Assembly: GCA_963819815.1 (NCBI GenBank)
Contig: CAWFXL010000001.1
Location: 1,312,001 to 1,376,000, forward strand
Direction: 5' to 3'
Origin: an uncultured bacterium
GTDB lineage: Bacteria > Babelota > Babeliae > Babelales > Babelaceae
Length of the DNA: 64,000 nt
Of the stretch, positions 14,755 to 64,000 are shown piece after piece. Every line of letters starts with the position of its first letter. Position 1 is the first letter of the stretch. The notes beneath the pieces were generated by a model. The model did not search any database and was not told where the DNA came from. It saw only the letters and a list, made by a program, of their open reading frames with translations. Position numbers and translations under genes: made by a program.

Positions 14755-14935
14755 ACGTTACCTTACCTGTATAGGTATCCTTCTTAAATGCCGTCACCTA
14801 AGTATAGCATAAGCAGAAAGGCTCGTCATGGTCTTTCCTGCTTTACACTTTGGCATGCTGGCCTATACTTTGCAAGTAACAAGGTCTTTGTTGTACATGA
14901 GGATTAATTTTTCTGCAACGTGAGCTGGAGTATTT

Positions 14936-16904: not shown

Positions 16905-16913
16905 GATGCCACC

Positions 16914-17228: not shown

Positions 17229-17408
17229 CAGATATACCCTTTTTTTATATTGGCTTGCCTTAATCTTATCTTAGCAAATAGCACATGATAAATTCAATAG
17301 TTTTTCAGATTGGCATTAATGCGTAAATAAGTGAGATCTTGTGGGCATTATCTGATGGTATATACTAGACTTATAACATGCATGAACATTATTCCTCGGA
17401 GGGGTCAT

Positions 17409-28364: not shown

Positions 28365-29120
28365 CTATGTCTTCTTATTTTCTTTTTCATATGTTCTAAG
28401 GAGCTCAATCATGGACGGTGTCTTTTGGGGATTTTTATCATGATATTTGGCAGTTCCTTCGGCGAGAACTTTTACTCTACTCCCTTTTGAAAGGTTTTCA
28501 AATTTCTCTCCAAAGGATTGTGATTTTTCAAGAAATGATAAGGCAGTATCTCCGTTGATATCCTTTATTGACGAATCAGCCCCCTTTTTAAGTAAAAATT
28601 CGATCATTTCACTATCTCCCTCTCGCGCAGCATGGATTAAGGCGGTTGCTCCCTGCTTATCCCGATAATTTATATCAGCACCCTGTGCTAAAAGAAGTGT
28701 TACCACTTTAAGGTGGTTTGTTGCTGGTGTAGAAAGTACATGAACATCTGAAGGAAGCCCGAGAACATCAACATAGGGTACCGTATGGCCTTTAACGGCT
28801 AGCATTAAAGGAGTCAAGCCTTTATCAGTTGTTTGGTTTGCTTGAGCTTTACTTTTAAGGAGGAATTCTACCATTTTAAAGTTGCCACGATGGGCTGTAT
28901 CCAACAATGCAGACATATTATCCATTTTAGGATCCCTATAGTCAACAGGGACACCCGCTTTTAGTAGTTTTTTTACCGCTTCAACATCATTTGCTGCTGC
29001 CTTTAACACAATGTCTGGTTTTTTGATGTTAGCTTTTAATAGGAGAGTTTGGATGTCACCAAACAGAGTTCCCCCTGTCATGCCAACTAATCCGGTGCAT
29101 AGTATATAAAATTTGTTCAT
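28365..29120 (-). CDS. Exported ankyrin-repeat protein
   Basis: GLTPLMLAV, GATALIHAA, GDTAL, LLxxGADIN. Hydrophobic N-terminus. Confidence 0.9.
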   Translation of the reverse strand: MNKFYILCTGLVGMTGGTLFGDIQTLLLKANIKKPDIVLKAAANDVEAVKKLLKAGVPVDYRDPKMDNMSALLDTAHRGNFKMVEFLLKSKAQANQTTDKGLTPLMLAVKGHTVPYVDVLGLPSDVHVLSTPATNHLKVVTLLLAQGADINYRDKQGATALIHAAREGDSEMIEFLLKKGADSSIKDINGDTALSFLEKSQSFGEKFENLSKGSRVKVLAEGTAKYHDKNPQKTPSMIELLRTYEKENKKT

Positions 29121-32164: not shown

Positions 32165-32361
32165 AGAGCATTATTCGGACTGTCGAACAGTTACAATGAA
32201 ACATGAAACGTTATCTTTTCTTTATCTAGATTCTGAGTTCATTTTATTGCAGCAAAAAACAGACGCCTTTTCCAACGTAGCAAAGCTGATTGCACTATGA
32301 GATTTTTTTAAATATAGTATAACATGTGAATATGATCAAAAAACCTATTCGAAAGCACCAC

Positions 32362-33597
32362 ATGAAAAGACTAGCACTTGCTCTGTTGAGTAGCACAATA
32401 TTCTCCCAATGCATATTTTCAATGATGGATGTGTTACAGCAACCCTCACTTATAGAAACACGCAAACCACTCACCTTGCAACTCATAGAAGAAGTTAAAA
32501 GGGGAAATCGCGCCGCTGCAAGGGCACTCGTCAAAAGCGGTGCACTTATAGGTGACGATGATAAGTTGCCAAACGGTCGTTACTCAGGTTGTAACTCATT
32601 TGAATGGGCAGCTATTCGGGGTGACGAAGGCTGTATGAATGATCTGCTAGATGAGCTTGGAAATAATACCCCTCCAAAAAATCCTTTGACTAAAGAATGG
32701 ATGATTATGCATCCAGATAGCAAGTATAGAATATTGAATGAAGAAATTAAGAAATATCGCCAGTTAATTGTCCCCTTTATGAGTCGTCGGAGCTTTGAAA
32801 GTACTTTTGAAGAAGAGAAGCGACTCGAGAGAATAAGGGGATTTCTTACTAGTCATAGCGACTTTCAAGGTGCACCGAATATAAAACGTTTTATGAGAAG
32901 AGTTTTACACAAAGCCGCAGTTCAGCTCATACGAGATAGACTCTTTGCCTACGCGCAAACTCTTGGAAATCAAGAACTTGCGGAAGCTCTTTTAGCTACT
33001 GGGCAAATCTATACGAAACCCCTAGAAAGCAGCAGGCCAGATTCACAAGATTTAGTGACGTTGCTCATTTCAGCAATCGGGAGACGAGATCATCAACTCA
33101 TGAAAGCCTTAATTGCTTTTGGAGTTGAGGTAAATAAGGTAATGCCAAACAGGTGGACTGTTTTTGGTGAGAAGTGGAGTCCTTTGGAAAGTGCTGCTTA
33201 CTCGGGTGATTCAATCGCCTTAAAGATACTGATCGATGCAGGCGTTAACATTGAACGCATAGGTAGTTTCGTTGGTGGAACAGCTCTTCATCTTGCCGCC
33301 GCATATCCTGCAGCTCTGCAAGTTCTTTTTGAGGCCGGTGCAGTAGCTAAACGTGAACTGAAGGGTAATAATTTTCGTCCTATTGACTACTGCCGTAATA
33401 AGGAAGCCTATTTTGAAGCACTTGTTCGGTCAAGTGTAAAAAGATATACGGGCGAAATTAGGCCGGATCAGATGGTGAACTATTTACTCGAAGAGGCAAG
33501 AAAGGAAGCTTCCCTTGAAGAGTGTTATGCAGAACTATTTCCTCATTCTCAGGCATTTGAAGAGCGATACAGAAAAATACTTGTTTCCACTCTCTAG
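32362..33597 (+). CDS. Exported ankyrin-repeat protein
   Basis: SPLESAAYSGD, GTALHLAA, LIDAGVNI, signal peptide. Confidence 0.85.
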   Translation: MKRLALALLSSTIFSQCIFSMMDVLQQPSLIETRKPLTLQLIEEVKRGNRAAARALVKSGALIGDDDKLPNGRYSGCNSFEWAAIRGDEGCMNDLLDELGNNTPPKNPLTKEWMIMHPDSKYRILNEEIKKYRQLIVPFMSRRSFESTFEEEKRLERIRGFLTSHSDFQGAPNIKRFMRRVLHKAAVQLIRDRLFAYAQTLGNQELAEALLATGQIYTKPLESSRPDSQDLVTLLISAIGRRDHQLMKALIAFGVEVNKVMPNRWTVFGEKWSPLESAAYSGDSIALKILIDAGVNIERIGSFVGGTALHLAAAYPAALQVLFEAGAVAKRELKGNNFRPIDYCRNKEAYFEALVRSSVKRYTGEIRPDQMVNYLLEEARKEASLEECYAELFPHSQAFEERYRKILVSTL

Positions 33598-44669: not shown

Positions 44670-44746
44670 GTGCCCGTAGCTCAGCTGGATAGAGCAACGG
44701 ATTTCTAATCCGTAGGTCGTAGGTTCGAATCCTACCGGGCACACCA
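44670..44746 (+). tRNA. tRNA-Arg(UCU)
   Basis: GTGCCCG acceptor stem, AGCTCAGCTGGATAGAGC D arm, anticodon loop TTTCTAA, GGTTCGAATCC T arm, encoded CCA. Confidence 0.97.
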
Positions 44747-44838: not shown

Positions 44839-45738
44839 TTATATTTTACGTGCAATAAACTTCAAACTTGAGATAGGTAACTTATCGCTGTCAAACCATT
44901 TCTTATTGATCTCGAGGTCCTCGTCAATAATCGTTATCTCAAAACCAGCATTATTAAGCATTCCAAGATAGGTCTTTTTCAAAAGTGCTCCGCTAACGCA
45001 GGCAGATAAGAGTGCAGGGTCTTTCTTTTGGGTATCAGTAAGCTCCTGAAGCAATACAATGTCTGATATAGCCATAACACCTCCGGGCTTCAGAACTCTT
45101 GCAGCTTCTTTAAAGACAAGGTGTTTTTGAGGCGCAAGATTAATCACACAGTTGCTCATAATAACGTCAATTGAATTGCTTTCAACTGGCAATGATTCGA
45201 TATCACCTAGACGAAATTCTACATTGGAAATTCCATATTTTTTTGCATTTGCACGAGCCCTTTCAATCATGGCAGTAGTCATATCAATGCCAATAACTCT
45301 TCCATGTGTGCCAACTTTACGTGCAGCCAAAAAGCAGTCAAGTCCTGCTCCTGAACCAAGATCTAATACGACGTTCCCCTCTTTTATATATCCAAGGCTA
45401 ACTGGATGGCCGCATCCAAGGCCTAGGTTGGCATCAGCAAACATCTCAAGTTCTTCACGTGAGTAGCCAATGGTTGCTGATAGTTCACATCCACCACCGC
45501 AACAACCACCAACAGGACCAACACTATCTTTAGCTACCTCGGCATATGCTTTTTGAATAATTTTTTTTGGGTCATCAGTTTCAGCATATATCTTTTTAGA
45601 GTCAGCAAGCTTTTTCACAGGATTATTTGTAACTCTACTATTTTCTTGTTTAGGACAGCAATTTTTACCATCACAGGATTTAGCAGCCATGCATAGTGGA
45701 GTTAATGCGACGATCAAGAAAGCGTACAACATTTTCAT
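44839..45738 (-). CDS. arsM: Arsenite methyltransferase with N-terminal signal-like peptide
   Basis: GCCG, NLGLGCGHP, LDLGSGAGLDC, SNCVINL, SACVSGA. Confidence 0.88.
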   Translation of the reverse strand: MKMLYAFLIVALTPLCMAAKSCDGKNCCPKQENSRVTNNPVKKLADSKKIYAETDDPKKIIQKAYAEVAKDSVGPVGGCCGGGCELSATIGYSREELEMFADANLGLGCGHPVSLGYIKEGNVVLDLGSGAGLDCFLAARKVGTHGRVIGIDMTTAMIERARANAKKYGISNVEFRLGDIESLPVESNSIDVIMSNCVINLAPQKHLVFKEAARVLKPGGVMAISDIVLLQELTDTQKKDPALLSACVSGALLKKTYLGMLNNAGFEITIIDEDLEINKKWFDSDKLPISSLKFIARKI

Positions 45739-45837
45739 AATTAATCCCTTTGATATTTGAGTTTCTAGCCAGCCTTTTTTCATTGCGATAAAAAATTCGC
45801 TTTTTGGAATCTTTTAATGAATTCCCAATTATGAGAA

Positions 45838-46662
45838 TTATAGACGTTTAATAAATTCAAACAAGTCTGCATTAATCAGATCTTTGTGCGTTTGGCACAT
45901 ACCATGCGGTAATCCTGGATAGACTTTGAGGAGTGCATTCTTGACAAGCTTGACAGATAGGAGCGCCGAGTCGGCGATTGGTACTATTTGATCATCATCA
46001 CCGTGCATAATCAATGTCGGAATGTCGAACTTCTTAAGATCTTCAGTGAGATCGGTCTCCGACCATGCCTTTATACCAAGATATGAAGCAGGAAAGCCGG
46101 CGAGACTTGATTGGAGCCAGAAGGATTCGCGCACACCTTCGGAGATCTTAACTCCTGGCCTATTGTATCCATAAAAAGCAAGACTAAGATCTTTCCAGAA
46201 TTGGTACCGATCTTCCTGAACCTGCTTTCTTAGGCCGTCAAATGTAGCTATAGGTAATCCCCCAGGATTACTAGCTGTTTTGAGCATGAGCGGAGGGATT
46301 GCGCTAATAAGTATTGCCTTTGCAACATTTTTGGTGCCATGTTTGCCGATATAACGAGTTACTTCACCACCTCCGGTTGAATGACCAACATGAATTGCAT
46401 TTGTAAGTTTGAGCTTTGCTACGAGCTCTGCAAGGTCGTCGGCATACGTATCTATATCATTACCATGCCACGTTTGCTCAGAGCGCCCGTGACCGCGACG
46501 ATCATGGGCTATGCAGCGGTAGCCTTGCGAGGCTAGGAAAAACATCTGGTCTTCAAAGGCATCTGCACTCAGAGGCCAGCCATGACTGAATACCACTGGC
46601 TGCCCGGTGCCCCAATCTTTGTAATACATTTGTGCGTTGTCGCTCAGGGTAAGTATGTTCAT
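45838..46662 (-). CDS. Non-heme chloroperoxidase-like alpha/beta hydrolase
   Basis: [38 protein letters not shown]. Confidence 0.92.
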
Positions 46663-46819
46663 ATCCGTCTCTCTTTGTATGTTCTGCAATGTGTGCTTTG
46701 GAAAGCTTTGGCCTGGTAGCATACAATAATACCACCTCAGCATCAAGTGAGTTGTATGCTCTTTGAGCCGCCCCATATATCCTATTTGAAGACCAATGGG
46801 AAGGGGTTGTTCCTGTAGT

Positions 46820-46893
46820 GCTCAAAATGGTGAGCCGATTAACCTCTCTATTCGGCTCAAAATTTCCATGTTTCTGAGCCGATTAATACTCTA
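46820..46893. repeat. Short alternating direct/inverted repeat cluster
   Basis: TGAGCCGATTAA at 46831 and 46875, inverted TCGGCTCA at 46852, GCTCAAAAT twice. Confidence 0.6.
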
Positions 46894-46970
46894 GGATGCA
46901 AAGGGTTAAGGAAAATGAAATACAGTTATCAGCCACCACTAGCACAGCCTGCTATTACCTGAAGTAGCTC

Positions 46971-47951
46971 CTAGAGGATTTTCCAGGGGCTTGCCGCAAG
47001 CTCGCTTGGAATTTTTATAGGAAGGATAATTCTCATATTATCTTGAGATAAAGCTACCATAACAAGGGCATATTCTTCATCGAGGCATGCTGTGAGAGCT
47101 CTGAGTTCATCCGTAGGAATATGGAGTGCATGTTCATTACATTGAGCTACATAGAGGTCTAGAATGCCGTTCACATCCATAGTTTTTAATTTTCCTGCTA
47201 GAGTACATGTTAGGCCCTGAGCAAATAATGTTTTTATCTCAGGATGGAGAAATGAAAAATACTGTTTTTTTAAGATCATGTACGCTCTTTGTATCAGATC
47301 AAGTGCTTTCATTGCAAACTCTCGATTATGTTGTGCTTGATAGAGGCATATCTTCTTAAGGCGTTGATAGGCTTCTTCAAGAGCCTTTGGATAGGTAACC
47401 GTTGCAAGATCATCCGGCAGACTTAGAAAATGTTGTGGCAGGGGGGTAGTCCCATTTTTAAGGGCATATGCGACGTTGGGAAAATATGCTAATAATGTTG
47501 ATTGTTCATTCACCTTCAGCTCTTCGCTTAATGCATTTGCTCTTAATAGAGTTGCGGTAAAGCAAAAGGGCACAAGATTTCTGATAATACCGGATGTGGG
47601 TTGAGTTGTGATGGTGAGCATCATGTGTTGTTCAGATTTACAGGTTTCAAAATCCTTGCGAGTGCATAGGTTTTCAGGGGTGCGTAACTGTACTTTACTC
47701 CAAGGACCACAGGAAACTATCTGCATGGCTTTCATTCGATCTGGAGCTGCAAGAATGAGCTTCCCCTGGGGCACAATTGTAGCACCGAGCACTATACCAT
47801 CCTGGTAGGAATAGGTAACTAAGAGCTTCCAGTCGGTTTTATTTGAAAGAAGCATTCTTTGAGAAAGGCTGTTCGTTATGTTGACTTCTTGAGTCATTCC
47901 CAGAAGAGAGGCGCTCACACATAACAACGGGATGCATAAGATATTCATCAT
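46971..47951 (-). CDS. Exported hypothetical protein, distant paralogue of 31379..32164 (J-like helices)
   Basis: RBS GAGGAG, signal peptide, LSNKTDWKLLVTY, LLAYFP, ALEEAYQRL...IQRAYMIL. Confidence 0.55.
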   Translation of the reverse strand: MMNILCIPLLCVSASLLGMTQEVNITNSLSQRMLLSNKTDWKLLVTYSYQDGIVLGATIVPQGKLILAAPDRMKAMQIVSCGPWSKVQLRTPENLCTRKDFETCKSEQHMMLTITTQPTSGIIRNLVPFCFTATLLRANALSEELKVNEQSTLLAYFPNVAYALKNGTTPLPQHFLSLPDDLATVTYPKALEEAYQRLKKICLYQAQHNREFAMKALDLIQRAYMILKKQYFSFLHPEIKTLFAQGLTCTLAGKLKTMDVNGILDLYVAQCNEHALHIPTDELRALTACLDEEYALVMVALSQDNMRIILPIKIPSELAASPWKIL

Positions 47952-48111
47952 TGCTCCTCTCGGCATATACACTTGTACCAGTGTACCAAAAGGCTCATGA
48001 TTTGCGAAAATGATCTGTTTGCATAACCAATCTGCTCAAGTTGCAAAACGAGGGTTTTTGATGGATATGCATTGCAGGTGTGTAACGGTATGAAACGGCG
48101 AAGGTAGTATC

Positions 48112-48154: not shown

Positions 48155-49504
48155 TTATCTTTTTTTCCCCTGAGTGGTGGTAGCTGGAGCAGCTTTAGCT
48201 CTTCTCACTACAGTTGGGGGCTTTGGTCCTGCGTTTAGGCGCCTGATCCCTGGCTGTGGATTTGGAGCATTTCTCGTAGTACTCGTTGTACTCGAGGATG
48301 ATGACGTGTTTTTCGGTAGCCTTCTTTGTACTGTTCTTCTAGTATTTGTAGTGCTGGTACTCGAGGAGGAGGTACTTCTCGCAGGTTGATGTGCAGGGGC
48401 ATACTGAGGTCTTGTTGCTGAGTGCTCGTATATCAGCGTTGTCACAAGGGTGTTCTTATTGGCGCCATAGCCTAGTTGTCCTATTTTGAACACTTCCTGC
48501 TCGCTGCAAGGTGTAATAGTCTCATCATTGCAATAATACCATTCATTGCCTGCTTTTACATAGGCGGTATAGTGGCCAGAGTTTGCTGATCCGCTATGCA
48601 TAATGATGCTAACAACTTCATAATCACCGCAACTTTTTGATGGATCTTTAAAACAGCGATCAAATGATTGGTTATACAGATCAAATGAAATAGGATTTTC
48701 ATGTCGAGTAAACGTAGGTACTGCTTGTCCTCGTGTTCTCCGTATAAAGTTTTTTCTATCTAATGAACAAATAACATATCGGCCAGTTCTTTGAAGAAAG
48801 GTATGGCGCTCTCCATCGACAGGTCCTAGTCCTTCAATAGCTACAGCATCGAATGAAGGCTGAGAGAAAGATTGTAAACATTCGTTAATATTTCTACTTT
48901 CTGGAAGTACCTTCAAACTAAGGCAAGGCGAATACTGGACTTCTTTATCTGACTCGAAAAATCCGACTTCACCTAGATCTGCATAGGCCTTACTTTCAGA
49001 AAACACATAAAAGAGTTGTGCTAGATCAGTTTTGAGTTCTTCAGGATACTGTGCAAGATCTGAGTCGTTTGGCTCGTCGTGACGTGCAAAAAGTGGCCAC
49101 TTGGTATCTTTAACATCTTTGTAGGTAATACATTCTAAGAGCTCTCGTAAGAGTTCATTGGCATCAGCCTGATCGCAGGGATCATCGTTGAGTTGATGCC
49201 ATCCACGAAAGCAGAAAGTCGACGGGTCAATTTCGTCATCATCTGTATCTGAATGCATGAAATGTGGTAATAAATCTGTATAGGCCTCGGCAAGGCTATC
49301 TTTCTTGTACACACTATCTTTGTTCTGCTGGTTAAGCAAGTAGGTGATGTCCTGCATAGCATAGACTGCCTGAAGTGCTGCATTCATAAAGCAGTTTGAG
49401 CCAATGTTTTTGAGCGGAGCTGGTTTGAGCGGCTCCATGCATATTATTGGAGTCATATAGCTCATAATGACGATGTATAAAAGGGTCTTAGTTTTATGTA
49501 TCAT
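48155..49504 (-). CDS. Exported ubiquitin-specific protease (peptidase C19/USP family)
   Basis: Cys box LKNIGSNCFMNAALQAV, QADANE, His box HSGSANSGHYTAY, WYYCND. Confidence 0.9.
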   Translation of the reverse strand: MIHKTKTLLYIVIMSYMTPIICMEPLKPAPLKNIGSNCFMNAALQAVYAMQDITYLLNQQNKDSVYKKDSLAEAYTDLLPHFMHSDTDDDEIDPSTFCFRGWHQLNDDPCDQADANELLRELLECITYKDVKDTKWPLFARHDEPNDSDLAQYPEELKTDLAQLFYVFSESKAYADLGEVGFFESDKEVQYSPCLSLKVLPESRNINECLQSFSQPSFDAVAIEGLGPVDGERHTFLQRTGRYVICSLDRKNFIRRTRGQAVPTFTRHENPISFDLYNQSFDRCFKDPSKSCGDYEVVSIIMHSGSANSGHYTAYVKAGNEWYYCNDETITPCSEQEVFKIGQLGYGANKNTLVTTLIYEHSATRPQYAPAHQPARSTSSSSTSTTNTRRTVQRRLPKNTSSSSSTTSTTRNAPNPQPGIRRLNAGPKPPTVVRRAKAAPATTTQGKKR

Positions 49505-49528
49505 AATGCACTCTTGTTATTTTTAAAT

Positions 49529-50653
49529 CTATTTTTTATTAAGTATACATAATTTTATCAAATTGTAAATACCAGAAGATGAGCTTGATGATCTTGTTGA
49601 ATAGGTAGGGCGTGCGCTGGATAACTCATAGATAAAGGTTGTAGCTACAGAACCATTTTCTGTAGAGCCTTGTTGTGAAATGCGCGTCATGCTTTCTTCT
49701 GAAACTGGTGTAACAGCAGCATCATCACAAAAGTACCACTGGTTTCCTAACTTTGAGTAGGTAGTATAATGACCACCGTCTGCGTTGCCGCAATGCATAA
49801 TGACGGCAATAAGTTCATAGGGACCTTTACTTCTTTCCTTAAGGAGGAAATAGGGAGAAAGATCGAGCTTATTTAGGGGAAAGCTGATGCGCGCATCTTC
49901 TTTCATGTATGAGATTCCTGCTTGCCCTCTATGCCCTTCTTTTCGGTCGAGCATAATGAAAAGATAGTTTTGTGTTTCCTCGAGAAATCGTCTGTTAGCC
50001 CCTTCAATTAAGGTATCTGGATCGCTTCTAAAATGTTCGCTTTGGCTTTGAAAATACCGGTCAAGGCAGTTTGAGAGAGTCTTATCTTCGGGTCGCACTT
50101 CTAAGCTGAGTCCAATGGTCTGCTCTGGCGATTTGGTGCCGATAAAAGCCTCATTTTTGGGATCTATTCTTAGATGGCGGATATGTACATAAAACAGTTC
50201 TGAGAGCTCCGTTCTCATCGTTGGAATCTGAGTTCCTTTATACTTGGGATGATATGGCTTGTACTCATCATTAATGTCAGTCTCGGTAATATGGTTGAGA
50301 ATTGTTGCTAAACAGTCATTTGCATCTCCTTGTTCACGTTCGTTCATCCCAAGGTGAGCATATATGCTGGTATGGAGTTCCGCGGGGCCTATTGAAGAAC
50401 TTTGTGCGGTGCGAAGCTGGATGGCGCAATCTCTTAAGAGAGCAGACAGGCTACCCGGCTTGAGGTAATATCCATGCTCGAGTGCCATCGACACTAAATC
50501 TACCGATGCATGCAAAGCTTGAAGGCTCGCATTAATGAAGCAGGCATTCCTCTGGTTGACCAGTCCTTTAGGGATATAGATGTTGTTTTCTCCCATGCCA
50601 AAGGCACTGGCCGGTAGGCATAGTAGAGCGATACTGAATAGTTTGTGTACCAT
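49529..50653 (-). CDS. Exported ubiquitin-specific protease (peptidase C19/USP family)
   Basis: Cys box GLVNQRNACFINASLQAL, QGDAND, ISFP, YELIAVIMHCGNADGGHY, WYFCDD. Confidence 0.92.
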   Translation of the reverse strand: MVHKLFSIALLCLPASAFGMGENNIYIPKGLVNQRNACFINASLQALHASVDLVSMALEHGYYLKPGSLSALLRDCAIQLRTAQSSSIGPAELHTSIYAHLGMNEREQGDANDCLATILNHITETDINDEYKPYHPKYKGTQIPTMRTELSELFYVHIRHLRIDPKNEAFIGTKSPEQTIGLSLEVRPEDKTLSNCLDRYFQSQSEHFRSDPDTLIEGANRRFLEETQNYLFIMLDRKEGHRGQAGISYMKEDARISFPLNKLDLSPYFLLKERSKGPYELIAVIMHCGNADGGHYTTYSKLGNQWYFCDDAAVTPVSEESMTRISQQGSTENGSVATTFIYELSSARPTYSTRSSSSSSGIYNLIKLCILNKK

Positions 50654-50736
50654 AAAAAGCTCCCCCGGATTATATTTTTTTATATTTACTAATAGTAACT
50701 ATATAGAGGGAGGGGGAACTTGTCAAGGGGGCGAAT

Positions 50737-51399
50737 TTATCGAGCCATAAGGGAAGAGCGGAGGGCTTTGATTGCAAATACGGGATTATGTCCTGAAAAG
50801 ACTGCCGATCCGATGATGAGTTGGTCTGCACCAGCCTTTACAAGTGCTTGGACATTTTCTTGGTCGATTCCTCCATCTATGGCTATTACATAGGGTTTAT
50901 GGGATTCTTTTCCTATGTTGATGGCTTCCTGCAGCTTGAGTAAAACTAGCGGCATGAACTCTTGGCCTGAAAAACCTGGATGCACTGACATAAGAAGGAG
51001 ATGGTTAAAGGGGGCTGAAACTTTTTTAAGGATGCTCGAAGAGGTTTCGGGATTAAGGGCTAGGCTTGGTATCCATCCATACGAGCTTATTAAGTGCACA
51101 AGTTTGTCTAACGGTAAGCTTGAAGGGCTTTCAGGATGGACTGCGACAATATCACCTTGTTGAAGTATTACCCGTTCAAAGTAGCGTTCGGGGTACTCGA
51201 CCATAAAGTGCACGTATAGAGGCTTTTGGGTTGCCTTGCGTATGGCATTAATGGTATCAGGGCCTAGGGTAAGATTAGGAACGAAATGGAAATCCATGAC
51301 ATCAATATGGTACCCGTCGACATAAGGATCAAGCTGTGCGAGCTCCTTTTCAAGATTAAGGAGATTGGCAGCGATTAAGGAGGGAAAGAGTTGTATCAT
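50737..51399 (-). CDS. rpe: Ribulose-phosphate 3-epimerase
   Basis: PSLIAAN, HIDVMDFHFVPNLTLG, MSVHPGFSGQ, IDGGI. Confidence 0.95.
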   Translation of the reverse strand: MIQLFPSLIAANLLNLEKELAQLDPYVDGYHIDVMDFHFVPNLTLGPDTINAIRKATQKPLYVHFMVEYPERYFERVILQQGDIVAVHPESPSSLPLDKLVHLISSYGWIPSLALNPETSSSILKKVSAPFNHLLLMSVHPGFSGQEFMPLVLLKLQEAINIGKESHKPYVIAIDGGIDQENVQALVKAGADQLIIGSAVFSGHNPVFAIKALRSSLMAR

Positions 51400-51648: not shown

Positions 51649-54600
51649 CTAGCGGCGATTGAGCCATGCATGTACATTTGAGCCAACTATGATAGCGGCG
51701 CAGGAGATACCCAAAACTAACATTTGAATTTTCTCCAATTTCGCCTGGTGTTTCCGCTTACATGCCTCTTCGTAGGATTGCTTACCTCCTAAGTCGCTTA
51801 GAATCTGTAAAATTTTCTCTTTATCCGTCTTCTTTTTCTCTGTGTACTCTAAACTAAGGGTCTGCTCATATGCATCAGCTATGATTTCACGTGAACATCT
51901 TGGTGCGAGAGCTTCTACATGCTCAGACGTGAGAGAATTAACGGCATACCAGAGCGCCGTGCGTCCCTTAGCGTCACGCATTTCTATAAACCCTTGAGAG
52001 AGCCTTGCAGCAAGCTTCTTGATTGGATGGGGCGAATAGCTCCAATCACTATCGTTAACGGCATGGAAAAGTACCGTTTTGCACTCTGGGTCTTTTTCTA
52101 GGCGGTCTATAGTTTCTTGTGAGCTGCGCTCAGAGAGTGTTTCTATATCGTACCATGAATGGGCTTCTACCGCACGCAAAAGGGCACTTTTGCCCTGCTC
52201 GTCAACCTTATCTATCGTACTTGGGGAGCTTTGCCATGCAAGTGACTCTACCATACCCCAATTGCGTACCGCTACTGCATGAGCTAAGGCGGTTTTTCCC
52301 TCAGCATCAGTGATGTCCCCTAAATGGAGCCCGCCTTCAGCAGTAACTCTTAGCCAAGAAGGATCCTCTCTGTGTGAAGCTCTACCATATTGACTGATTA
52401 ACCTATCAAACTTATTGTAGTAATGCTCACGTGGTGTTGTCTGTATAATTCTGATTAAAGAGCCTCGTATGAGAGATTCGTCGGCATGCTCAAAGAATAC
52501 TTGGGCTAACTTTCCTTCGACACAATAATTGCCCGTCATGCAGTTACTCGCAGCATACGCAAATGCATTGTTCCCCTCGTTGTCATCGATAGTAAGGCTT
52601 GCTTTATGTTTCAGCAAAGCCTTTATAACATCCAAGATGATTTCTCTATTGGCAGTTCTCTTCTTGAATACTTTCAGTGTGCAGAGTAATGCCGTCTCTC
52701 CCTCATTATTTTGCACATTAATGGTTTCTTGTATCGCTCTATGAGCTAATAACATCTCAACAACGGGATGATTATTTTCAGAGAGAGGCACCTTTTTACA
52801 TGCATGGATGAGTGTCGTATCGCCGTCTTCGTCCTGCACTCCAGCATCGGCACCATGTTCAAGTAAATGCGCAACAGTTCTTTGAGCAGCGTCTATCGGG
52901 CACCCTGACAAACATGCCTCTATCGCATACCTAAGTGCAGTTCTTCCTTTTTTATCTCGTAAGTTTACTCCCTCAGGGCATGCTTTCATGTACTCTAAAA
53001 GCATGCGGACTTCTTCGTCAGCGCATTTTTCTGCTGACAACATCAGAGCCGTCTGTCCATCGCTATTTTGCACATTGATGGACTGTTGTACTGATGCATG
53101 TGCTAACAACAGCCCCAAAAGTTGATGATTGTTTTCACGGCGAGGAGCATTTTGACATGCACAGATGAGCGCTGTATTGCCGTTATTGTCCTGCATTCCA
53201 GCATCGGCACCTTCTTCAAGTATATGCGCCATAATCTTTGGGGTAGCATCTGTCGGGCATGTTGATTCGCATGCTTCTACCGCATACATAAGTGCAGTTT
53301 TGCCTGTATTATCCCGTCCATTTATCGCCTCTGGGTATTCTTTCATGTACTTCAATAGTCTGTAAACTTCTGAGATCTTGCCCAGTTGAGATGACAACAT
53401 TAGAGCAGTACAGCCATGCTCATTACAACTGAGGGCATGAGCTCGATGTTTTAAGAGTGTGTCCATGGCCAACCAGCCCATGCGCTTTGTGCCCGCAACA
53501 ATCACCAGCGCTGTACGTCCTTGCAAATCGATACTATCGACGGGAACACCATAGTCTAGAAGAACTTCAAGCATTTGATGATCGCAATCTACAGCAGCTT
53601 TTAGGTATGCATCCTTCAATGGATGGTTTGCTCCAAGCTTTAACAAAACTGCTACTGCAGGGGCATTGGAGTAAGACAGCTCCCTTGCAAGCCTATTGTC
53701 AATATTGTAACCAGGTGCTTTTGCTAAGAGCAATGGAACGATGTCAGGAGAGTGCCTCAATGCTATGTCGAGCGCATTTTGGTTATCATAATTGCGTACC
53801 AGAGGGTTAGCTCCTAGCTCAAGAAGACGTGTCACTATTGATCTCGTCCAGTCTGCTGAATGTGCTGCCGCTGTCATCAGTGCCGTTGTTCCATTTTTAT
53901 TCTTTATATCAACAAACTTAGGAGATGCCTTTGAAAGGCACATAAGAGCTACCTCTTCACTACCATAGGCTCGACTCACTGCATACATAAGGGGAGTCTC
54001 TTGATCATTGTTCTGAGTATCGACAGAAGCATTATGTTCGAGTAATATCCTCATATCTTGTAAAGAATATCGTGCATCCATTCTTCGGGTTTTAATCGCA
54101 TGCACAAGAGGAGTATTTCCTAGTTTATCTTGTTCATGAATATCAGCTCCCTTTGATATAAGTGCTGCCACGACGCCTTTGCTCTGTGCTAACTTGGCAG
54201 CCAACATAAGAGCAGTTTCCCCATCGTTATTTTTCATAGAAACTGTCTCCGTGGAGGCCCTTGAAAGGCATAGTGTAATAACCTCTAGGTCACCAGAACG
54301 TAGAGCCCACATGAGTGGTGTATCACCTGCGGTATTCTGCATGCCAACATCAGCACCTGACTGAAGTAAGAACGTAATGCCATCTAATGAAGAGTCTACT
54401 ACGTCATCATCATTATCGTTAGAAGGCACTGCTGAACCTGTTGTATTTCTAAGAGCATAGACTAACGGAGTATTACCTTCCTCGTCCTTCCAATTTACTT
54501 GAGCACCTCGTTGAAGAGTGTCCTTCATTTGCTCAGAGTTTCGTTCAGATGCTGCCTTCCCAAACTCACGTTGTACCGCACGTTGACCCTCGATTACGAG

Positions 54601-55806
54601 TGCTGCAACACCACGCTGTGTAAGAAGTGTGATCATTGAATTGTTGCCAGCAGCGAGAGCTCGATGATATGCAGCAATTAGCCCATCATTCATTGCCCCA
54701 TGATTAAAGAAGTACTCAGCTGCTGGAGCTGATCCGCAGCGTAAGGCCGTCTCAAGTCCTCTATGTACATCATAGCCGCCAATCTTTTCAACCAATAGGG
54801 GTACGACATCGGGACATTTAGCGAAGGCAAAATCGATGAGATCTGCACCGGGAATGTCCATGATGGCTGCTCCCTTGTTTAGGAGCAATGGCACGATACT
54901 TGTAGCCCAAGGGCTTTCAATCGCTATCATGAGTGCAGTTCGGCCTCTTTTATTCTTTTTGATAACTGCATCCTGTTTCGCTCCTAAAAGGCATGCTTTC
55001 GCAAGAGCTTCACTGCCATATTCCCTATCTATCGCATACATAAGAGGAGTTGCGCCATCTTGATTTGCTATGCCTACATCTGCACCCCTTTCAAGAAGAA
55101 GTTCAATTACATCTAACGATCGACTTGATGCTGTTCTACTCGCTTTGATTAGGTAGGCAAGGGCAGTATTTCCTGTTGAATCTTTCTCATTAACCAGAGC
55201 CCCGCGAGCAATAAGTTCATTGAGCAACTCTTTGCTTTTTCCGGCCCGAGCTGCCAGAATAAGGGCAGTCTCTTCTTTATTGTTCCTCATAGAAGTTATT
55301 TTGGGATCAGTCTTTGCAAGGCATAGGGTAGCTATAGCCCCATTCTCATGTGTTACCGCAAGCATAAGGGGCGTATCTCCCCTACTATTTTGTATGCCCA
55401 CATAAGCACCATGCTCAAGTAGAAACGCCAACGCTCCTAAGGAACATCGCATGCCTTTAAGTAAATTCAAAAGCACCGTATTACCTGAGGCATCTGTACG
55501 ATTTACCAAAGCGCCTTGTGAAATACAGTCTTGCATCTTTGCTGTATCGCCTGCCAAAGCAGCTTCCAAAAGTTGATTTTGAGCAAGAACGATCATGGCA
55601 GCTTGATGTGCTACCTCAGGATCCTCTAGGAGGTTGCGGGCTAAGCCTTGTTGGTTAATAATCTGCGGAATCCTCTCCTCTACTCTATGTTCGCTCTTAG
55701 ATGTTGTTGTAGAAGAATTTGTTTGGACAAGCATAGTATTCATCGCAGAACAGCAGGTCGCTATACTGACCAAGTAAGAAATTTTTGCCAGGTTGAGCAT
55801 TTTCAT
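51649..55806 (-). CDS. Large exported ankyrin-repeat protein (>20 repeats) with C-terminal TM
   Basis: Repeated GxT(P/A)LMxA...LLxxGAD, signal peptide, C-terminal MLVLGISCAAIIVGS. Confidence 0.92.
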   Translation of the reverse strand: MKMLNLAKISYLVSIATCCSAMNTMLVQTNSSTTTSKSEHRVEERIPQIINQQGLARNLLEDPEVAHQAAMIVLAQNQLLEAALAGDTAKMQDCISQGALVNRTDASGNTVLLNLLKGMRCSLGALAFLLEHGAYVGIQNSRGDTPLMLAVTHENGAIATLCLAKTDPKITSMRNNKEETALILAARAGKSKELLNELIARGALVNEKDSTGNTALAYLIKASRTASSRSLDVIELLLERGADVGIANQDGATPLMYAIDREYGSEALAKACLLGAKQDAVIKKNKRGRTALMIAIESPWATSIVPLLLNKGAAIMDIPGADLIDFAFAKCPDVVPLLVEKIGGYDVHRGLETALRCGSAPAAEYFFNHGAMNDGLIAAYHRALAAGNNSMITLLTQRGVAALVIEGQRAVQREFGKAASERNSEQMKDTLQRGAQVNWKDEEGNTPLVYALRNTTGSAVPSNDNDDDVVDSSLDGITFLLQSGADVGMQNTAGDTPLMWALRSGDLEVITLCLSRASTETVSMKNNDGETALMLAAKLAQSKGVVAALISKGADIHEQDKLGNTPLVHAIKTRRMDARYSLQDMRILLEHNASVDTQNNDQETPLMYAVSRAYGSEEVALMCLSKASPKFVDIKNKNGTTALMTAAAHSADWTRSIVTRLLELGANPLVRNYDNQNALDIALRHSPDIVPLLLAKAPGYNIDNRLARELSYSNAPAVAVLLKLGANHPLKDAYLKAAVDCDHQMLEVLLDYGVPVDSIDLQGRTALVIVAGTKRMGWLAMDTLLKHRAHALSCNEHGCTALMLSSQLGKISEVYRLLKYMKEYPEAINGRDNTGKTALMYAVEACESTCPTDATPKIMAHILEEGADAGMQDNNGNTALICACQNAPRRENNHQLLGLLLAHASVQQSINVQNSDGQTALMLSAEKCADEEVRMLLEYMKACPEGVNLRDKKGRTALRYAIEACLSGCPIDAAQRTVAHLLEHGADAGVQDEDGDTTLIHACKKVPLSENNHPVVEMLLAHRAIQETINVQNNEGETALLCTLKVFKKRTANREIILDVIKALLKHKASLTIDDNEGNNAFAYAASNCMTGNYCVEGKLAQVFFEHADESLIRGSLIRIIQTTPREHYYNKFDRLISQYGRASHREDPSWLRVTAEGGLHLGDITDAEGKTALAHAVAVRNWGMVESLAWQSSPSTIDKVDEQGKSALLRAVEAHSWYDIETLSERSSQETIDRLEKDPECKTVLFHAVNDSDWSYSPHPIKKLAARLSQGFIEMRDAKGRTALWYAVNSLTSEHVEALAPRCSREIIADAYEQTLSLEYTEKKKTDKEKILQILSDLGGKQSYEEACKRKHQAKLEKIQMLVLGISCAAIIVGSNVHAWLNRR

Positions 55807-56276
55807 GATATTTTTCCTGATAGTATAGAACATATGAGGTTTTGCAGATTCTACAAGAGCTTTGTAGCTTGTAGCCCATTATGCTGAGAGTAAAGCAGAA
55901 TGCGACCAGTACCTTTCAATTCTATCCAGGCTATTCCCAGCCGTCAAATTTAGTAAAAAATTTTTCATATCATGTGAGCAGTCTCGGTATGATTCCTGCA
56001 AAATAGAAATCAAATAACCTGGTCAGCATTGGTGAACTATGCTGTAGCTACTGGTCTAAATTTTGGGGTTCCTTATACTATGTGCCCATTATTGAATGAA
56101 TTGAGGAGATATTTTGGCTATGTATGCCGGTTATCACAGGGGACAAAGGATGAGTTTTGAGCAGCAGGAAATCTGAGTGTACTTCTATAAAATATTTGCA
56201 GGTCTATTCTATTGTGCTATACTATACTGATGTAAGTATTAAATGAATATCCATGATTACCCAGAGGAGTAATAGT

Positions 56277-56578: not shown

Positions 56579-58232
56579 ATGGCAGGAAAAAGAATATTAT
56601 TTGGAGCTGAAGCACGTCAAAAGACTTGCAAAAGGTGTTGATACTCTTGCTGATGCAGTAAAGGTAACTCTCGGGCCCCGTGGTCGTAATGTTGCTTATG
56701 AGAAGAAATTTGGTGCACCGGCTATTACCAAAGATGGTGTAAGTGTTGCAAAAGAAATTGAACTAGCTGATCCTATTGAAAATATGGGCGCACAAATGGT
56801 TCGTGAAGTAGCAAGCAAAACTGCTGATGTTGCCGGTGATGGTACGACCACAGCTACGGTGCTTAGCGCAAGCAATTTTTCGAGAAGGTAATAAATATGT
56901 TACTGCTGGTGCTAATCCTATGGAAATTAAACGTGGTATTGATAAAGCGGTTGCCGTTGTCGTTGAAGAGATTAGAAAACTGCTCGAAAAGTAAGCGACA
57001 AAAAAGAGATTGAGCAAGTTGCAACTATTTCTGCAAACTCTGATTCGACTATTGGTGAAGCAGATTGCTGAAGCAATGGAACGTGTTGGTCGCGATGGTG
57101 TTATTACCGTTGAAGAAGCAAAAGGCATGGAAAGTGAAATTTCATTTGTTGAAGGTATGCAATTTGATCGTGGCTATATTTCTCCTTATTTTGTAACTGA
57201 TCAGGAAAAGATGGAAGCAGTGTTACAAGATCCGTATATTCTTCTTTATGAAAAGAAGATTTCAAGCATGAAGAGCTTGCTTCCGATTCTTGAACAAGTT
57301 GCAAAATCTGGTCGTCCTCTCTTAATTATTGCAGAAGATGTTGAAGGTGAAGCTCTTGCTACCTTAGTAGTTAATAAGCTTCGTGGCACATTGAATGTTG
57401 TTGCAGTAAAAGCTCCAGGCTTTGGCGATCGTCGTAAAGCAATGCTTGAAGATATTGCAACATTAACCGGTGGTAAACTGATTTCTGAAGATATTGGTTT
57501 AAAGCTTGAAAATGTACGCTTAAAGATCTTGGTCATGCTAAGAAAGTATTAGTTACCAAAGATACCTTCACTATTATTGAAGGTGCAGGAGCATGATGCG
57601 GCTATTAAAGGTCGTATTATGCAAATCAAAGCTCAAATTGAAAATACAACATCAGATTATGATAAAGAAAAACTGCAAGAACGTCTTGCAAAACTTTCAG
57701 GTGGTGTTGCAGTTATTAAAGTTGGTGCAGCAACTGAAACAGAAATGAAAGAAAAGAAAGATCGTATTGAAGATGCACTACATGCAACACGTGCAGCAGT
57801 TGAAGAAGGTATTGTTGCTGGTGGTGGTAGTTGCATTACTTCGTGCACAAGCAGTTGTTGAAAAACTTAAACTTGAAGGTGATGAACAGCTTGGGGTGCA
57901 AGATTGTAGCGCGTGCACTTGAAGAACCACTACGTATTATTTCTTCAAATGCTGGCTTTGAAGCTTCAGTAGTTGTTAATCAAGTTCGTCAAGAAACAGG
58001 CAATATTGGTTTTGATGCAAAAACTGGCGAATATGTTGATATGATTGCAGAAGGTATTATTGATCCTGCTAAAGTAGTGCGTTCTGCATTTCAAAATGCA
58101 GCATCTATTGCTGGCTATGCTCTTAACGACTGAAGCGCTCATTACTGAGATTCCAGAAGATAAGAAAGAAGTAGCCATTCACATGGTGGTGGAATGGGCG
58201 GCGGTATGGGTGGCATGCAAGGCATGTACTAA
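56579..58232 (+). CDS. groEL: Chaperonin GroEL with multiple frameshifts (probable assembly errors)
   Basis: [44 protein letters not shown] and the GGMGG tail are spread across frames. Confidence 0.9.
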
Positions 58233-60880: not shown

Positions 60881-62511
60881 TCAATTTTGGATGATCTTAT
60901 CGTGGATGAGCATTTTATGGGCAATTTTCTCAAATAGAGGCACTACGATCTGTGAAGCAAGCATTCCTCGCTTGGTAGTTTCCTTGATAGACACTACGAT
61001 GACCCGCTTATAGGAATCTTTCTCGATAATGCCCATGAAGGTAAAAAGGTGACGAGTGTGATCATATCGTCCATTGGTGATGAGCCGTGCAGTTCCTGTT
61101 TTTCCCATAATGTTGTAATTATTTATACTTGCTCGTGCAAGCGAACCTTCAGAAACTGTTTTTCGAAGAATACGTTTCATCTTTTGAATTGCTTCAAGAC
61201 TATACAGGGGACCTTCCGGTTCTTCTTTGTCATCATATAGAAGATGCAATTTCACCTTATAGCCATCATTTGCAACAATGGATAGCGCCTGTGCTATTTG
61301 TGCGAGATTGCATCGTATCTCATAGCCAAATGAGAGTGAATTTAGGGAAGCATTGGACCATCTATGGGGTGGAGAGATAACTCCTGGCGATTCTCCGGGG
61401 AAGATGCCAAGCTTCTTTGAGAAGCCAAGACGCTTATAGTGATCATAGAGTTTAGTGCCAACACGATGACCAACTTTGGCAACACCTATATTATTTGAAA
61501 ACTTAATGACATCTTCAAAAGGGATGATCCCCTTTGCTTTTGTTGTCGTAATGGGACTTCCATTAACGCGGGAGGAAAGTTTTCCTTCGCAATCGATGAG
61601 TGTATCAGGACTTATGACCCCTTCTTCCAAAGCTGCAAGTGCAAGAAATCCTTTGATTACTGAACCATATTCGTACGCATCGGTAATAATTCTGTTTTTT
61701 GTATGCTCTTGGATGATGTTCTCGGTGTTATTTGGATCAAAGTCTGGATAGTTGGCCATAACAAGAATATCTCCCGTCTCTGGATCACAGATAAGGACAG
61801 ATCCGTTTTTAGAACCTACTTGCTGGACATAGTCTTTGAGTTCTTCATAGACGAGAAATTGTAAAATCCGATCGATCGTGAGGGTTATCGGTTTTCCTTG
61901 GCACCTTCGACCAGTGTTTCTCGAGTAATATAAAACCGCTTAGCGCAATCTTTTTCAAGAAGATAGGTTGAAGCGCTTCCTGCGAGCAGGTCATTGTACA
62001 TCATCTCAAGGCCAGAGACCCCTTGGTTATCTATATTGGTGACCCCTACAATCGGTCCAACTCCTGCTATCGGATAATAACGACTTGGCTCACGTAAAAG
62101 TTTTATATCAGGTATATCGCTTAGTTCAATGAGAGCAACTTCTTCAGGGCTCAGGCGTCTTTTAATGTACATAAAGTGGCTTCTCTTAGTACGACGTAAT
62201 CGGTCTGCAGACTCTTTAAAATGGCGCGAGAGAAAATTTAAAAGGTTTTCACGATGCTCAAGTTTGGAAGGAATAATAAAAGCTGATATTGCTTCAGTGT
62301 TAAGCGCTAGGGGCTGACCTGTGCGATCGAAAATCTCCGCACGAGGAGGAGTTACGGTGATGGTCATCTTATATTGTTTTTGAGCACGACCGGTGAAAAA
62401 CTCCGAACGCTGAATTTGTACACGATATAAATTTACCACAAGAAACGCGTAGCATGCTACATAGAAGAAAAAAACAAGGGTAAGTCGTATATTAGGTTGC
62501 AGCGTGTTCAT
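60881..62511 (-). CDS. ftsI: Class B penicillin-binding protein (FtsI/PBP3), frameshifted near 61900
   Basis: RAEIFDR, RYYP, GVSGLE, LTID in the other frame, SVIK, SNN, KTG. Lies downstream of an ftsL-like gene. Confidence 0.85.
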
Positions 62512-62969: not shown

Positions 62970-64000
62970 ATGGTAGTAGGTAACCGATTTATTATTACTG
63001 GGTTATGCGCGATAAGTATACTCATACTAGGTAGTAGATATATATACAATAAAGCGCCACACAGCTCAGATGTAACGAACTTACCACGAGTAAGTGAGCC
63101 GGAACAAGGCCAAGAAACTCAAGCTCCTTGGAAGGCTTTTTCAACACTATCGAGTAAACAATCCTCACTCCAAACTGCGATTACTTTTTCACCGGATTCT
63201 CGCCTTCTTCTCGTTGGCTATCAAAATGGCTCTATAGAAGTTTGGGACGTAGAAAAACAGACCATAGAACGCAGTTGGGCTATACCTCAACCAGTTAAAA
63301 TATTTGCTTTTTCTCCTGACGGGAACCAGCTTGCAGCAACTTCCTCTGGAGCAAACGATACGAGTATTTACTTATGGGAATGGCCAACAGGTAAATTACT
63401 CCATGAACTGCATGGCCATGCAACAAAGAGGTGCTCAGAGTATTTCTGCGAAGCCAGTGACTGTTGCTGCACTGTTAACTTTTTGCAGTATATGGCTAAC
63501 GGGCAACTGGTATCCGCATCAAGTAAAAATGGTGCCATTACTATTTGGGATCCAAAATCTGGGCAGTTAGTACGCAGTATTACTATCCCGCTAGGTAATG
63601 TAACAGAATGCGTGGAGGATTCATCCCATGAGAAGCTCACAAGTAATGCGCCAGAATATGAGGCTATAGCTATCTCCCCTGATCAAAAATATATCGCCTC
63701 CACCCGCAATTGCACTTTTTACCCGTTAGAAAAGTATCCAGATTGGGATCCCGAGATAGCGTACGATTACAGAAACGAAGTTTGCGTTAACCTATGGGAT
63801 GGTACAACTGGAAATCTAACTAAGACAATCGCTACCGATATCATTGATTACGCTCGCGATGCAGGTACTAACGAACTCACCTTTTCACCTAACGGTACCT
63901 TTCTTGCTGTTGGTTGCGCTAAAGCTCTAATATGTCTTATAAATACGCATGATTGGTCTGCTAAACTGTTAGATCTTTCAGAATGTAGAAATAGAGAGCT
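62970..64000 (+). CDS. WD40-repeat protein, 3'-truncated by the window edge (absent from the ORF track)
   Basis: Translated by hand and open to the end: MVVGNRFIITGLCAISILILG..., ITFSPDSRLLLVGYQNGSIEVWD, AFSPDG, IYLWE, ITIWD, VNLWD. Confidence 0.85.
   Translation, partial: MVVGNRFIITGLCAISILILGSRYIYNKAPHSSDVTNLPRVSEPEQGQETQAPWKAFSTLSSKQSSLQTAITFSPDSRLLLVGYQNGSIEVWDVEKQTIERSWAIPQPVKIFAFSPDGNQLAATSSGANDTSIYLWEWPTGKLLHELHGHATKRCSEYFCEASDCCCTVNFLQYMANGQLVSASSKNGAITIWDPKSGQLVRSITIPLGNVTECVEDSSHEKLTSNAPEYEAIAISPDQKYIASTRNCTFYPLEKYPDWDPEIAYDYRNEVCVNLWDGTTGNLTKTIATDIIDYARDAGTNELTFSPNGTFLAVGCAKALICLINTHDWSAKLLDLSECRNRE

Follow-up and report, generated by a model that had tools for sequence, protein, structure and literature searches.

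The ubiquitin-specific proteases (USPs; peptidase family C19) are an overwhelmingly eukaryotic family of deubiquitinases (DUBs). Here, we describe two predicted members that lie in tandem in a bacterium, open reading frames ORF2 (49529..50653, minus strand) and ORF1 (48155..49504, minus strand). They are found in a 64,000-nucleotide stretch of DNA, the window (positions 1,312,001 to 1,376,000 of contig CAWFXL010000001.1, assembly GCA_963819815.1), from an uncultured member of the Babelaceae in the phylum Dependentiae (TM6). An earlier note on this DNA, made from its letters alone, had read the two genes as secreted deubiquitinase effectors acting in a protist host and had named TssM as a bacterial comparator.

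The closest described system belongs to the same phylum. Pagnier et al. 2015 (PMC4378268) predicted three secreted C19 ubiquitin C-terminal hydrolases in Babela massiliensis, which share with ORF1 and ORF2 the phylum, the peptidase family, the predicted secretion and the inferred role against host ubiquitin, and both sets are known from sequence only. The likeness is one of description. In open-access PMC and bioRxiv, we found no literature on the biochemistry of Dependentiae USPs and no phylum-wide survey of them, the Babela paper being the only relevant one.

USP-class deubiquitinases are still counted rare among bacterial effectors, and those assayed so far are TssM and three enzymes of Simkania negevensis (Chlamydiota); a 2026 review (PMC13720258) still counts only a handful of known bacterial USPs, naming TssM and SnUSP1–3. 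Boll et al. 2023 (PMC10643670) report that the three conventional Simkania USPs are active and that SnUSP1–3 react with ubiquitin-propargylamide (Ub-PA), and SnUSP1 and SnUSP2, as active, linkage-promiscuous DUBs, provide a functional precedent. As described in that paper, these enzymes have conventional USP domains, canonical active-site residues and an aromatic gatekeeper, as do ORF1 and ORF2. Compared by description, the Simkania enzymes are large, with hydrophobic regions and a domain starting at about residue 100–190 (constructs 167–187), whereas ORF2 and ORF1 have 374 and 449 residues and a domain that starts at residue 25–27.

TssM (PDB 8pz3, 8q00 and 8ssi), on the other hand, is a bacterial USP-class effector secreted by the type II secretion system (T2SS) in a Sec/T2SS-dependent manner; it is not injected and acts in the host cytosol (PMC10719079). 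The same source gives it a "Littlefinger" loop in place of Fingers and an N-terminal immunoglobulin (Ig)-like domain, whereas ORF1 and ORF2 have complete predicted Fingers and no Ig domain, the catalytic domain following directly on the hydrophobic N-terminus. By sequence, TssM aligned with ORF2 over residues 291–338 only, the end of the His box (E 2.6e-4). TssM is therefore not the best comparator, given the active, conventional USPs of Simkania. USPs were thus already known as predictions in this phylum and as biochemically validated enzymes in other bacteria; what is new, also beyond the Babela report, is the phylum-wide frequency, a paralog pair linked to rpe, a dichotomy between the C-terminal tails of the two paralogs and models with full Fingers.

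Two complete USP catalytic domains

Both proteins matched the Pfam profile PF00443 (UCH) well past its gathering cut-off of 23.9 bits, ORF2 with 97.2 bits (E 1.5e-27) and ORF1 with 89.7 bits (E 3.1e-25), and both matches covered profile positions 2–244 of 254; no other Pfam domain was found in either ORF by this search. Furthermore, a sequence search of the PDB with ORF2 returned 55 matches, every one a USP (top match USP15, 1.8e-12). The 374-residue ORF2 protein consists of a signal-like N-terminus, the full USP domain and, after a short linker rich in Ser, a hydrophobic helix at the C-terminus. The 449-residue ORF1 protein begins in the same manner and ends in a disordered basic tail of 85 residues.

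The catalytic domain of ORF2 spans residues 25–347 (49613..50581, minus strand), as judged from the range of the structural alignments (25 to 345–353) and from column conservation, and that of ORF1 spans residues 27–361 (48422..49426, minus strand), as judged from models, structural matches and alignment. At the codon level, we verified C38 (50540..50542), H295 (49769..49771), D311 (49721..49723) and the oxyanion residue N33 (50555..50557) in ORF2, and C38 (49391..49393), H311 (48572..48574) and D327 (48524..48526) in ORF1. The Cys boxes, NQRNACFINASLQ in ORF2 and NIGSNCFMNAALQ in ORF1, each carry N33, C38 and Q45. They are followed in ORF2 by QGD (D110), HCGNADGGHY (H295, Y296) and WYFCDD (D310–D311), and in ORF1 by QAD (D114), HSGSANSGHY (H311, Y312) and WYYCND (N326–D327). 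The four motifs that the earlier note had seen, the Cys box, QxD, the His box and W..C(N/D)D, are therefore all present in both ORFs. The names given to the two positions of the (N/D)–D pair, which provides the third catalytic residue, follow the convention of the family.

In an alignment of 85 relatives, the motif columns hold an identical residue in 80–85 rows, and 83 or more rows agree for the catalytic Cys, His and Asp, the oxyanion Asn and the gatekeeper Tyr. The oxyanion Asn, which precedes the catalytic Cys by five residues, is kept in 83/85, the Cys in 84/85, and the His and the aromatic gatekeeper Tyr of the His box in 84/85 each; the Trp and the second Asp of W..C(N/D)D are invariant (85/85). 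An aromatic gatekeeper after the catalytic His is a criterion for USPs according to PMC10643670.

The predicted structures agree with this assignment. AlphaFold models, built from 85- and 86-row alignments, reached a predicted local distance difference test score (pLDDT) of 92.2 and a predicted template modelling score (pTM) of 0.88 for ORF2, and 85.9 and 0.80 for ORF1, in which only residues 388–449 fell below a pLDDT of 50. Foldseek searches of the PDB gave USP2 as the top match for both (2ibi_A for ORF2, 6dgf_A for ORF1; E 7e-23 each), with 466 matches at E ≤ 0.001 for ORF2 and 465 for ORF1. The best matches were exclusively USPs, with template modelling scores of 0.79–0.84 between ORF1 and USP2/USP21. 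By VIA-align, the ORF2 model (residues 25 to 345–353) superposed on USP11, USP15, USP2, USP12, USP4, USP8 and USP46 with Z 31–32 and a root-mean-square deviation (rmsd) of 2.6–3.3 Å over 292–310 residues, covering about 90% of chains of 311–351 residues; for USP2, USP12 and USP46, 298–303 residues aligned of domains of 321–338 residues (Z 31–32, rmsd 2.6–2.9 Å). This near-full-length superposition on canonical USP domains implies that the Fingers are present, and strands fill the Fingers region at residues 156–251 of ORF2 and 167–267 of ORF1. In the models, then, the whole Thumb–Palm–Fingers hand is present in both proteins.

By sequence and predicted fold, both genes encode complete USP/C19 enzymes, and the profile search and structure prediction by which the earlier note had proposed to check its assignment both came out in its favor. 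The likeness to the minimal eukaryotic USPs (USP2, USP12/USP46, USP21 and the D1D2 domains of USP15/USP4/USP11) extends to the fold of the whole domain and to identical catalytic and gatekeeper residues. On the other hand, identity to them is only 20–24%, and the bacterial proteins have no regulatory domains and carry putative bacterial signal peptides. Many USPs hold a zinc ribbon in the Fingers. No CxxC pair occurs in either the ORF1 or the ORF2 sequence and, therefore, their Fingers cannot hold such a ribbon.

Just after the USP domain, we also observed a motif, Y-E-[LH]-S-[SA]-[AT]-R-P-x-Y, in both paralogs and in most relatives of both clades. In the alignment, it occupies residues 359–368 of ORF1 (about 48401..48430, minus strand) and 342–351 of ORF2 (about 49601..49630, minus strand). 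A fold cap, a processing site and a recognition site are candidate roles.

An old paralog pair with contrasting tails

ORF1 and ORF2 share 31% identity across 342 residues (E 4e-46) and, as the earlier note had it, lie 24 nucleotides apart (spacer 49505..49528, minus strand). The spacer holds three in-frame stops when the stop codon of ORF2 is counted. A read-through fusion of ORF2 with ORF1, which are in the same frame, was considered and ruled out by the intervening TAG, TAA and TAA. The TEL.ELFYV-type motif that the two were said to have in common is exact in ORF2 only (TELSELFYV), the ORF1 counterpart being TDLAQLFYV.

The closest public record, a Candidatus Dependentiae metagenome-assembled genome (MAG; locus L016), holds orthologs of both genes at 86% identity, in the order ankyrin protein, rpe (ribulose-phosphate 3-epimerase), ORF2 ortholog, ORF1 ortholog, tRNA-Arg(TCT) and then atpA on the opposite strand. 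A metagenome scan gave 31 loci, of which 15 were examined; L025, which is on the same contig as L016, is not among the 15. All four examined loci with 42–56% identity to ORF2 (L026–L029) have an ORF2-type gene followed by one or two USP genes on the same strand. L026 and L027 each hold a pair, the second gene of which shows 41% and 37.5% identity to ORF1, respectively, with rpe upstream and, in L027, atpA downstream; L028 and L029 hold three USP genes or gene pieces, the last one ORF1-like, with rpe again present in L028. The order ORF2-type then ORF1-type thus recurs in 5/5 ORF2-clade loci (L016 and these four), with rpe as a neighbor in L016, L026, L027 and L028. The 11 more distant loci that were examined have one USP ORF each.

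A quick maximum-likelihood tree of 66 rows placed ORF2 in a clade of seven rows with a support of 100 (Shimodaira–Hasegawa-like approximate likelihood ratio test, SH-aLRT). ORF1 falls in a clade of five rows (97) inside a group of 11 (91), together with the downstream partners P0015 (from L026) and P0022 (from L029), and the two groups join in a clade of 18 rows (91). This tree has no root, and long branches lead to several of the other rows; we make no claim from it on a eukaryotic donor lineage. Because of the 31% identity, the separate clades and the conservation of the pair in relatives down to about 41% identity, the duplication appears to be local but ancient. The earlier note's local duplication is accordingly upheld as far as tandem paralogs go, and the event is old rather than recent. 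Against the L016 orthologs, the ratio of nonsynonymous to synonymous substitution rates (dN/dS) is 0.18 for ORF2 (dS 0.37) and 0.15 for ORF1 (dS 0.45); these ratios indicate purifying selection on each of the genes, with the two copies maintained.

The two copies differ most plainly in what follows the domain. The C-terminal tail of ORF2 (49532..49615, minus strand) has 28 residues, comprising the ARPTY motif, a Ser run and a predicted helix, IYNLIKLCILNKK, modeled at residues 361–371 with low pLDDT. All 10 ORF2-clade rows have 5–36 residues after the domain, and the short hydrophobic helix is found in ORF2, its L016 ortholog and P0004 and is absent in the other seven. The tail of ORF1 (48158..48412, minus strand) has 85 residues, with 17 K/R, no D/E, 27 S/T and 11 P, a pI of about 12 and the ending GKKR. 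Among 11 proteins checked on the ORF1 side, the domain end could be located in eight, and seven of these eight carry low-complexity tails of 59–153 residues, mostly strongly basic and with basic clusters at the end (P0015 and its locus L026 have the identical tail). P0024 has a long acidic stretch in addition, and P0036 has only 10 residues. At the level of sequence, the contrast between ORF1-type and ORF2-type tails is a firm difference, and the different tails most likely send the two types to different places or substrates.

A second, smaller difference lies at the QxDxxE position, whose Glu binds Arg72 of ubiquitin according to a figure legend of PMC10719079. Glu is found in 72/85 relatives and in ORF1 (E117), whereas ORF2 has Asp (D113); the residue is Glu in the ortholog with 86% identity and Tyr in three members of the ORF2 clade. 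The Arg72-binding position of the ORF2 type therefore drifts among E, D and Y. For the idea of the earlier note that the copies diverged towards different linkages or ubiquitin-like proteins (Ubls), the sequences offer the tail contrast and the Glu-to-Asp change only, the latter being a hint about specificity and no more.

Across the phylum, PF00443 occurs in 90/261 Dependentiae genomes (63/189 of high quality; 50/145 genera), in 7/9 other genomes of the same genus and 17/24 of the same family, and in 23/41 genomes of our sample of relatives, the genome of the window included. Its distribution over families is patchy (f1 29/40, f11 28/35, f15 5/5, f21 9/80, f12 0/16 and f5 0/14). The rarity of bacterial USPs, as stated in the earlier note, agrees with the few that the review cited above lists as identified and does not extend to the Dependentiae. 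The relatives used here came from a HMMER scan of 1.84 billion representatives (4333 matches at E ≤ 0.001, 184 at ≤ 1e-10 and 30 at ≤ 1e-30), a word-based homolog search having yielded seven proteins. Ten representatives were looked up and three were named, as two eukaryotic records and one "ubiquitin carboxyl-terminal hydrolase" of the Joint Genome Institute (JGI).

An f11 Dependentiae genome also contains a giant ORF of 3750 residues with five PF00443 stretches (E 1.3e-127; L059, G146:C17:5000-24999, at 7434..18686, plus strand), which is preceded by an 1875-residue ORF with one USP domain (L059, 615..6242, plus strand). We know of no described protein with several USP catalytic domains.

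Proposed export and action on host ubiquitin

Could these small, conserved enzymes be directed at the ubiquitin of the host? Both N-termini start with basic residues, which lead into a hydrophobic stretch of 12–15 residues. In ORF2, residues 1–19, MVHKLFSIALLCLPASAFG (50597..50653, minus strand), form a putative Sec signal peptide with a Kyte–Doolittle window maximum of 2.44, no acidic residue and a small −3/−1 pair (A-F-G before M), with probable cleavage at G19|M20; the model shows residues 3–17 as a detached helix (pLDDT 60–72). The G|M junction occurs in 5/7 aligned ORF2-clade proteins, as G|ME in ORF2, P0002, P0003 and P0005 and as G|MQ in P0009, and in neither form in P0004 and P0006. 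In ORF1, residues 1–22, MIHKTKTLLYIVIMSYMTPIIC (49439..49504, minus strand), form a putative signal peptide or signal anchor, with two basic residues before a window maximum of 2.12 and a detached helix at residues 2–16 (pLDDT 66–67). Both proteins look exported, and the signal peptides of the earlier note stand as hydrophobic, signal-like segments of heuristic grade, with a weaker site in ORF1.

The same arrangement is widespread among relatives. From the first 154 stored relatives, we kept the 101 that start with M and match the Cys-box pattern (53 were dropped), and 73 of these have the Cys box within 60 residues of the start. A hydrophobic N-terminal window was found in 63/73 and, therefore, a signal plus a bare USP domain appears to be the usual architecture of the family. 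The genome also encodes four secretins, of which three are clustered, along with two T2SSE ATPases; VirB4, the one marker of the T3SS and T4SS type (type III and IV secretion systems) that the search covered, gave 0 matches. One secretin match, outside the window, is interrupted by a TGA that lies between two adjoining matches (G000:C1:22164-22663) and may be a broken secretin gene.

We put a probability of about 0.75 on the reading that ORF1 and ORF2 are catalytically competent, canonical USP-class isopeptidases that are exported by the Sec pathway as effectors and act on host ubiquitin or a close Ubl such as NEDD8. Of the roles that suggest themselves, one against host ubiquitin is the most reasonable; export, delivery, the ubiquitin substrate and the role of the tails are its inferred parts. 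The hydrophobic N-termini would direct Sec export across the inner membrane, with cleavage of ORF2 likely after A-F-G19. Release might then occur through the secretin/T2SS-like machinery encoded in the genome, as for TssM, or in outer-membrane vesicles, as suggested for Chromulinavorax, in which 44% of coding sequences have signal peptides and which, according to PMC6561590, replicates in the host cytoplasm. The enzymes of this bacterium, an obligately host-dependent member of the Dependentiae, would in this way reach the cytoplasm of a protist host and cleave off ubiquitin, or a very close relative such as NEDD8, that is attached to the surface of the bacterium, to its compartment or to proteins of the host. 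The outcome would be a blunting of ubiquitin-dependent autophagy and degradation.

Several points weigh against this account. The signal peptides were called by a hydrophobicity heuristic and not by a trained predictor, and the cleavage site of ORF1 is non-canonical, so that its segment could be an uncleaved membrane anchor. A Sec signal alone reaches the periplasm only, passage into the host being assumed, and the secretins and ATPases could belong to type IV pili and not to a protein secretion system. Asp113 stands at the Arg72-binding position of ORF2, the specificity of which could differ. A promoter-like site upstream of ORF2 (TTGACA-17-TATAGT; 50698..50726, minus strand), which would fit a separate ORF2–ORF1 transcript, is a consensus match only.

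The point about specificity leads to an alternative that we consider unlikely, namely that one or both enzymes act on another host Ubl (NEDD8, SUMO, Fubi or ISG15-like) or, in the manner of TssM, on ester-linked ubiquitin on lipid or lipopolysaccharide (LPS). Besides the Asp of ORF2 and the Tyr of its three relatives, it draws on the presence of USP18 (ISG15; 5chv) and USP36 (Fubi; 8bs3) among the structural matches, with scores near the rest, and on a polybasic ORF1 tail that could bind an anionic surface of a bacterial or host membrane. There is also precedent in the cross-reaction of SnUSP2 with ISG15 (PMC10643670) and of TssM with NEDD8 and esters (PMC13720258). However, ORF1 retains E117, the Asp of ORF2 is a conservative change with Glu in the 86%-identical ortholog, and in both proteins the Fingers are complete and the gatekeeper Tyr and every catalytic column are preserved. 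Moreover, the top structural matches are ubiquitin-specific USPs, and the sequence points to no particular Ubl. It is less probable still that the proteins stay in the envelope, periplasmic or membrane-anchored, and are papain-like peptidases that cleave bacterial substrates, for example peptides with a Gly-Gly end, and leave host ubiquitin alone. The Sec-type N-terminus is the sole targeting feature, with the weak cleavage site of ORF1, and no marker of the T3SS/T4SS type turned up in a search that covered VirB4. Set against this are the ubiquitin-recognition architecture (Fingers, gatekeeper and acidic residue), which is conserved under purifying selection, and the occurrence of PF00443 in 0/14 control prokaryotic genomes versus the 90/261 in this host-dependent phylum. 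T2SS-secreted TssM also provides the precedent of a Sec-dependent USP effector (PMC10719079). Searches of the genome for ubiquitin, OTU, U-box and F-box-like genes gave 0 matches each, with silent controls for all four. On this result, any ubiquitin would come from the host, and the two USPs may be the only recognizable DUBs of the genome, Peptidase_C48 having given one sub-threshold match.

That the genes are eukaryotic DNA mis-assembled into a bacterial contig, or decaying relics of a recent transfer, is refuted for practical purposes. The eukaryotic character of the family speaks for it, as do the eukaryotic records among the relatives, such as P0008 (rodent) and P0110 (rotifer). Nevertheless, the contig is bacterial, and the chimera that the earlier note had raised does not apply. 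The assembly has 1.64 Mb in two contigs with 88% marker completeness, and the neighbors in the window are bacterial (uvrB, recD2, atpH, atpA, ldh, dNK, M3 and M15 peptidases, mscS, an amidase, a penicillin-binding protein (PBP) and rpe). The GC content is even across the window (0.38–0.45), and ORF1 and ORF2 contain no introns or internal stops. The recurrence of rpe–USP–USP in L016, a Dependentiae MAG (with tRNA-Arg and atpA), L027 (with atpA), L026 and L028, the dN/dS of 0.15–0.18 and the low identity to solved eukaryotic USPs, which leaves no recent donor visible, point the same way.

We tentatively suggest, with the odds against us, a further picture. It holds that a conserved, rpe-linked two-enzyme module with a division of labor is older than much of the Dependentiae radiation, and that no other bacterial group is as large a source of canonical USPs with full Fingers as this phylum. 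The polybasic tail would fasten the ORF1 type to an anionic surface, where this enzyme would take off the first ubiquitin, and the tail-less, soluble ORF2 type would act on chains or on another Ubl; within the same tentative picture, candidate anchors for the tail are the outer membrane or LPS of the bacterium itself, a membrane of the host and the host nucleus.

The value of these findings is incremental: a 2015 annotation remark becomes a testable family, and no new mechanism is revealed. Canonical full-Fingers USPs emerge as regular equipment of the Dependentiae, expanded and under selection, reduced here to a bare catalytic domain behind a putative signal peptide, and the conserved paralog pair allows targeting by the tail to be tested against catalysis. 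The small, probably easily expressed domains would suit structural and specificity work and, if the tentative picture above is true, the Dependentiae, including the giant with five USP domains, would be a natural library of minimal USP scaffolds.

Neighboring genes in the window

Upstream of the pair lie rpe (50737..51399, minus strand; PF00834, E 2e-53) and a 1394-residue ankyrin-repeat protein (51649..55833, minus strand), hydrophobic at its N-terminus and in a C-terminal segment, a conserved neighbor that has 1360 residues in L016. The promoter-like site mentioned above lies in the rpe–ORF2 spacer, 45 nucleotides upstream of the ORF2 start, and matches the consensus at 11/12 positions; the region contains 20 such sites versus 18.3 ± 4.3 in shuffled sequence, which is not above chance. 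No terminator-like site was found downstream of ORF1. Among public sequencing runs, one DNA run (0.05 word share) and no RNA run matched.

An Rfam scan of the window gave one tRNA only. Between tRNA-Arg(TCT) (44670..44746, plus strand) and ORF1 lie three genes (44839..47972, minus strand), encoding an S-adenosylmethionine (SAM) methyltransferase of 314 residues with a hydrophobic N-terminus, an alpha/beta hydrolase of 312 residues and a protein of 333 residues. In L016, the tRNA directly follows the USP pair, which indicates a 3.4-kb insertion or deletion beside it. The 333-residue protein (46971..47972, minus strand) has a hydrophobic N-terminus and no Pfam match. Weak relatives (23–33% identity) were found in 5/40 related genomes and, in one of these genomes (G005), a copy lies about 0.9 kb from a USP gene on the same strand. 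Judging from these sequences, it may represent a secreted, lineage-specific family whose members accompany USP genes.

Elsewhere in the window, the PBP appears to be in two ORFs (60881..62511, minus strand), with PBP_dimer at 61885..62511 and the transpeptidase at 60881..61759; the cause could be a frameshift or a sequencing error, or the split could be genuine. A 180-residue ORF (57010..57552, plus strand) matches positions 157–301 only of the 490 of Cpn60/TCP-1 (E 6e-11) and is either a chaperonin fragment or a stand-alone protein resembling the apical domain. The window also encodes two WD40 beta-propeller and three ankyrin-repeat proteins (9674..10993, plus; 62970..63998, plus; 28365..29120, minus; 32326..33597, plus; and 51649..55833, minus), a load of eukaryote-like repeat proteins that is typical of Dependentiae.

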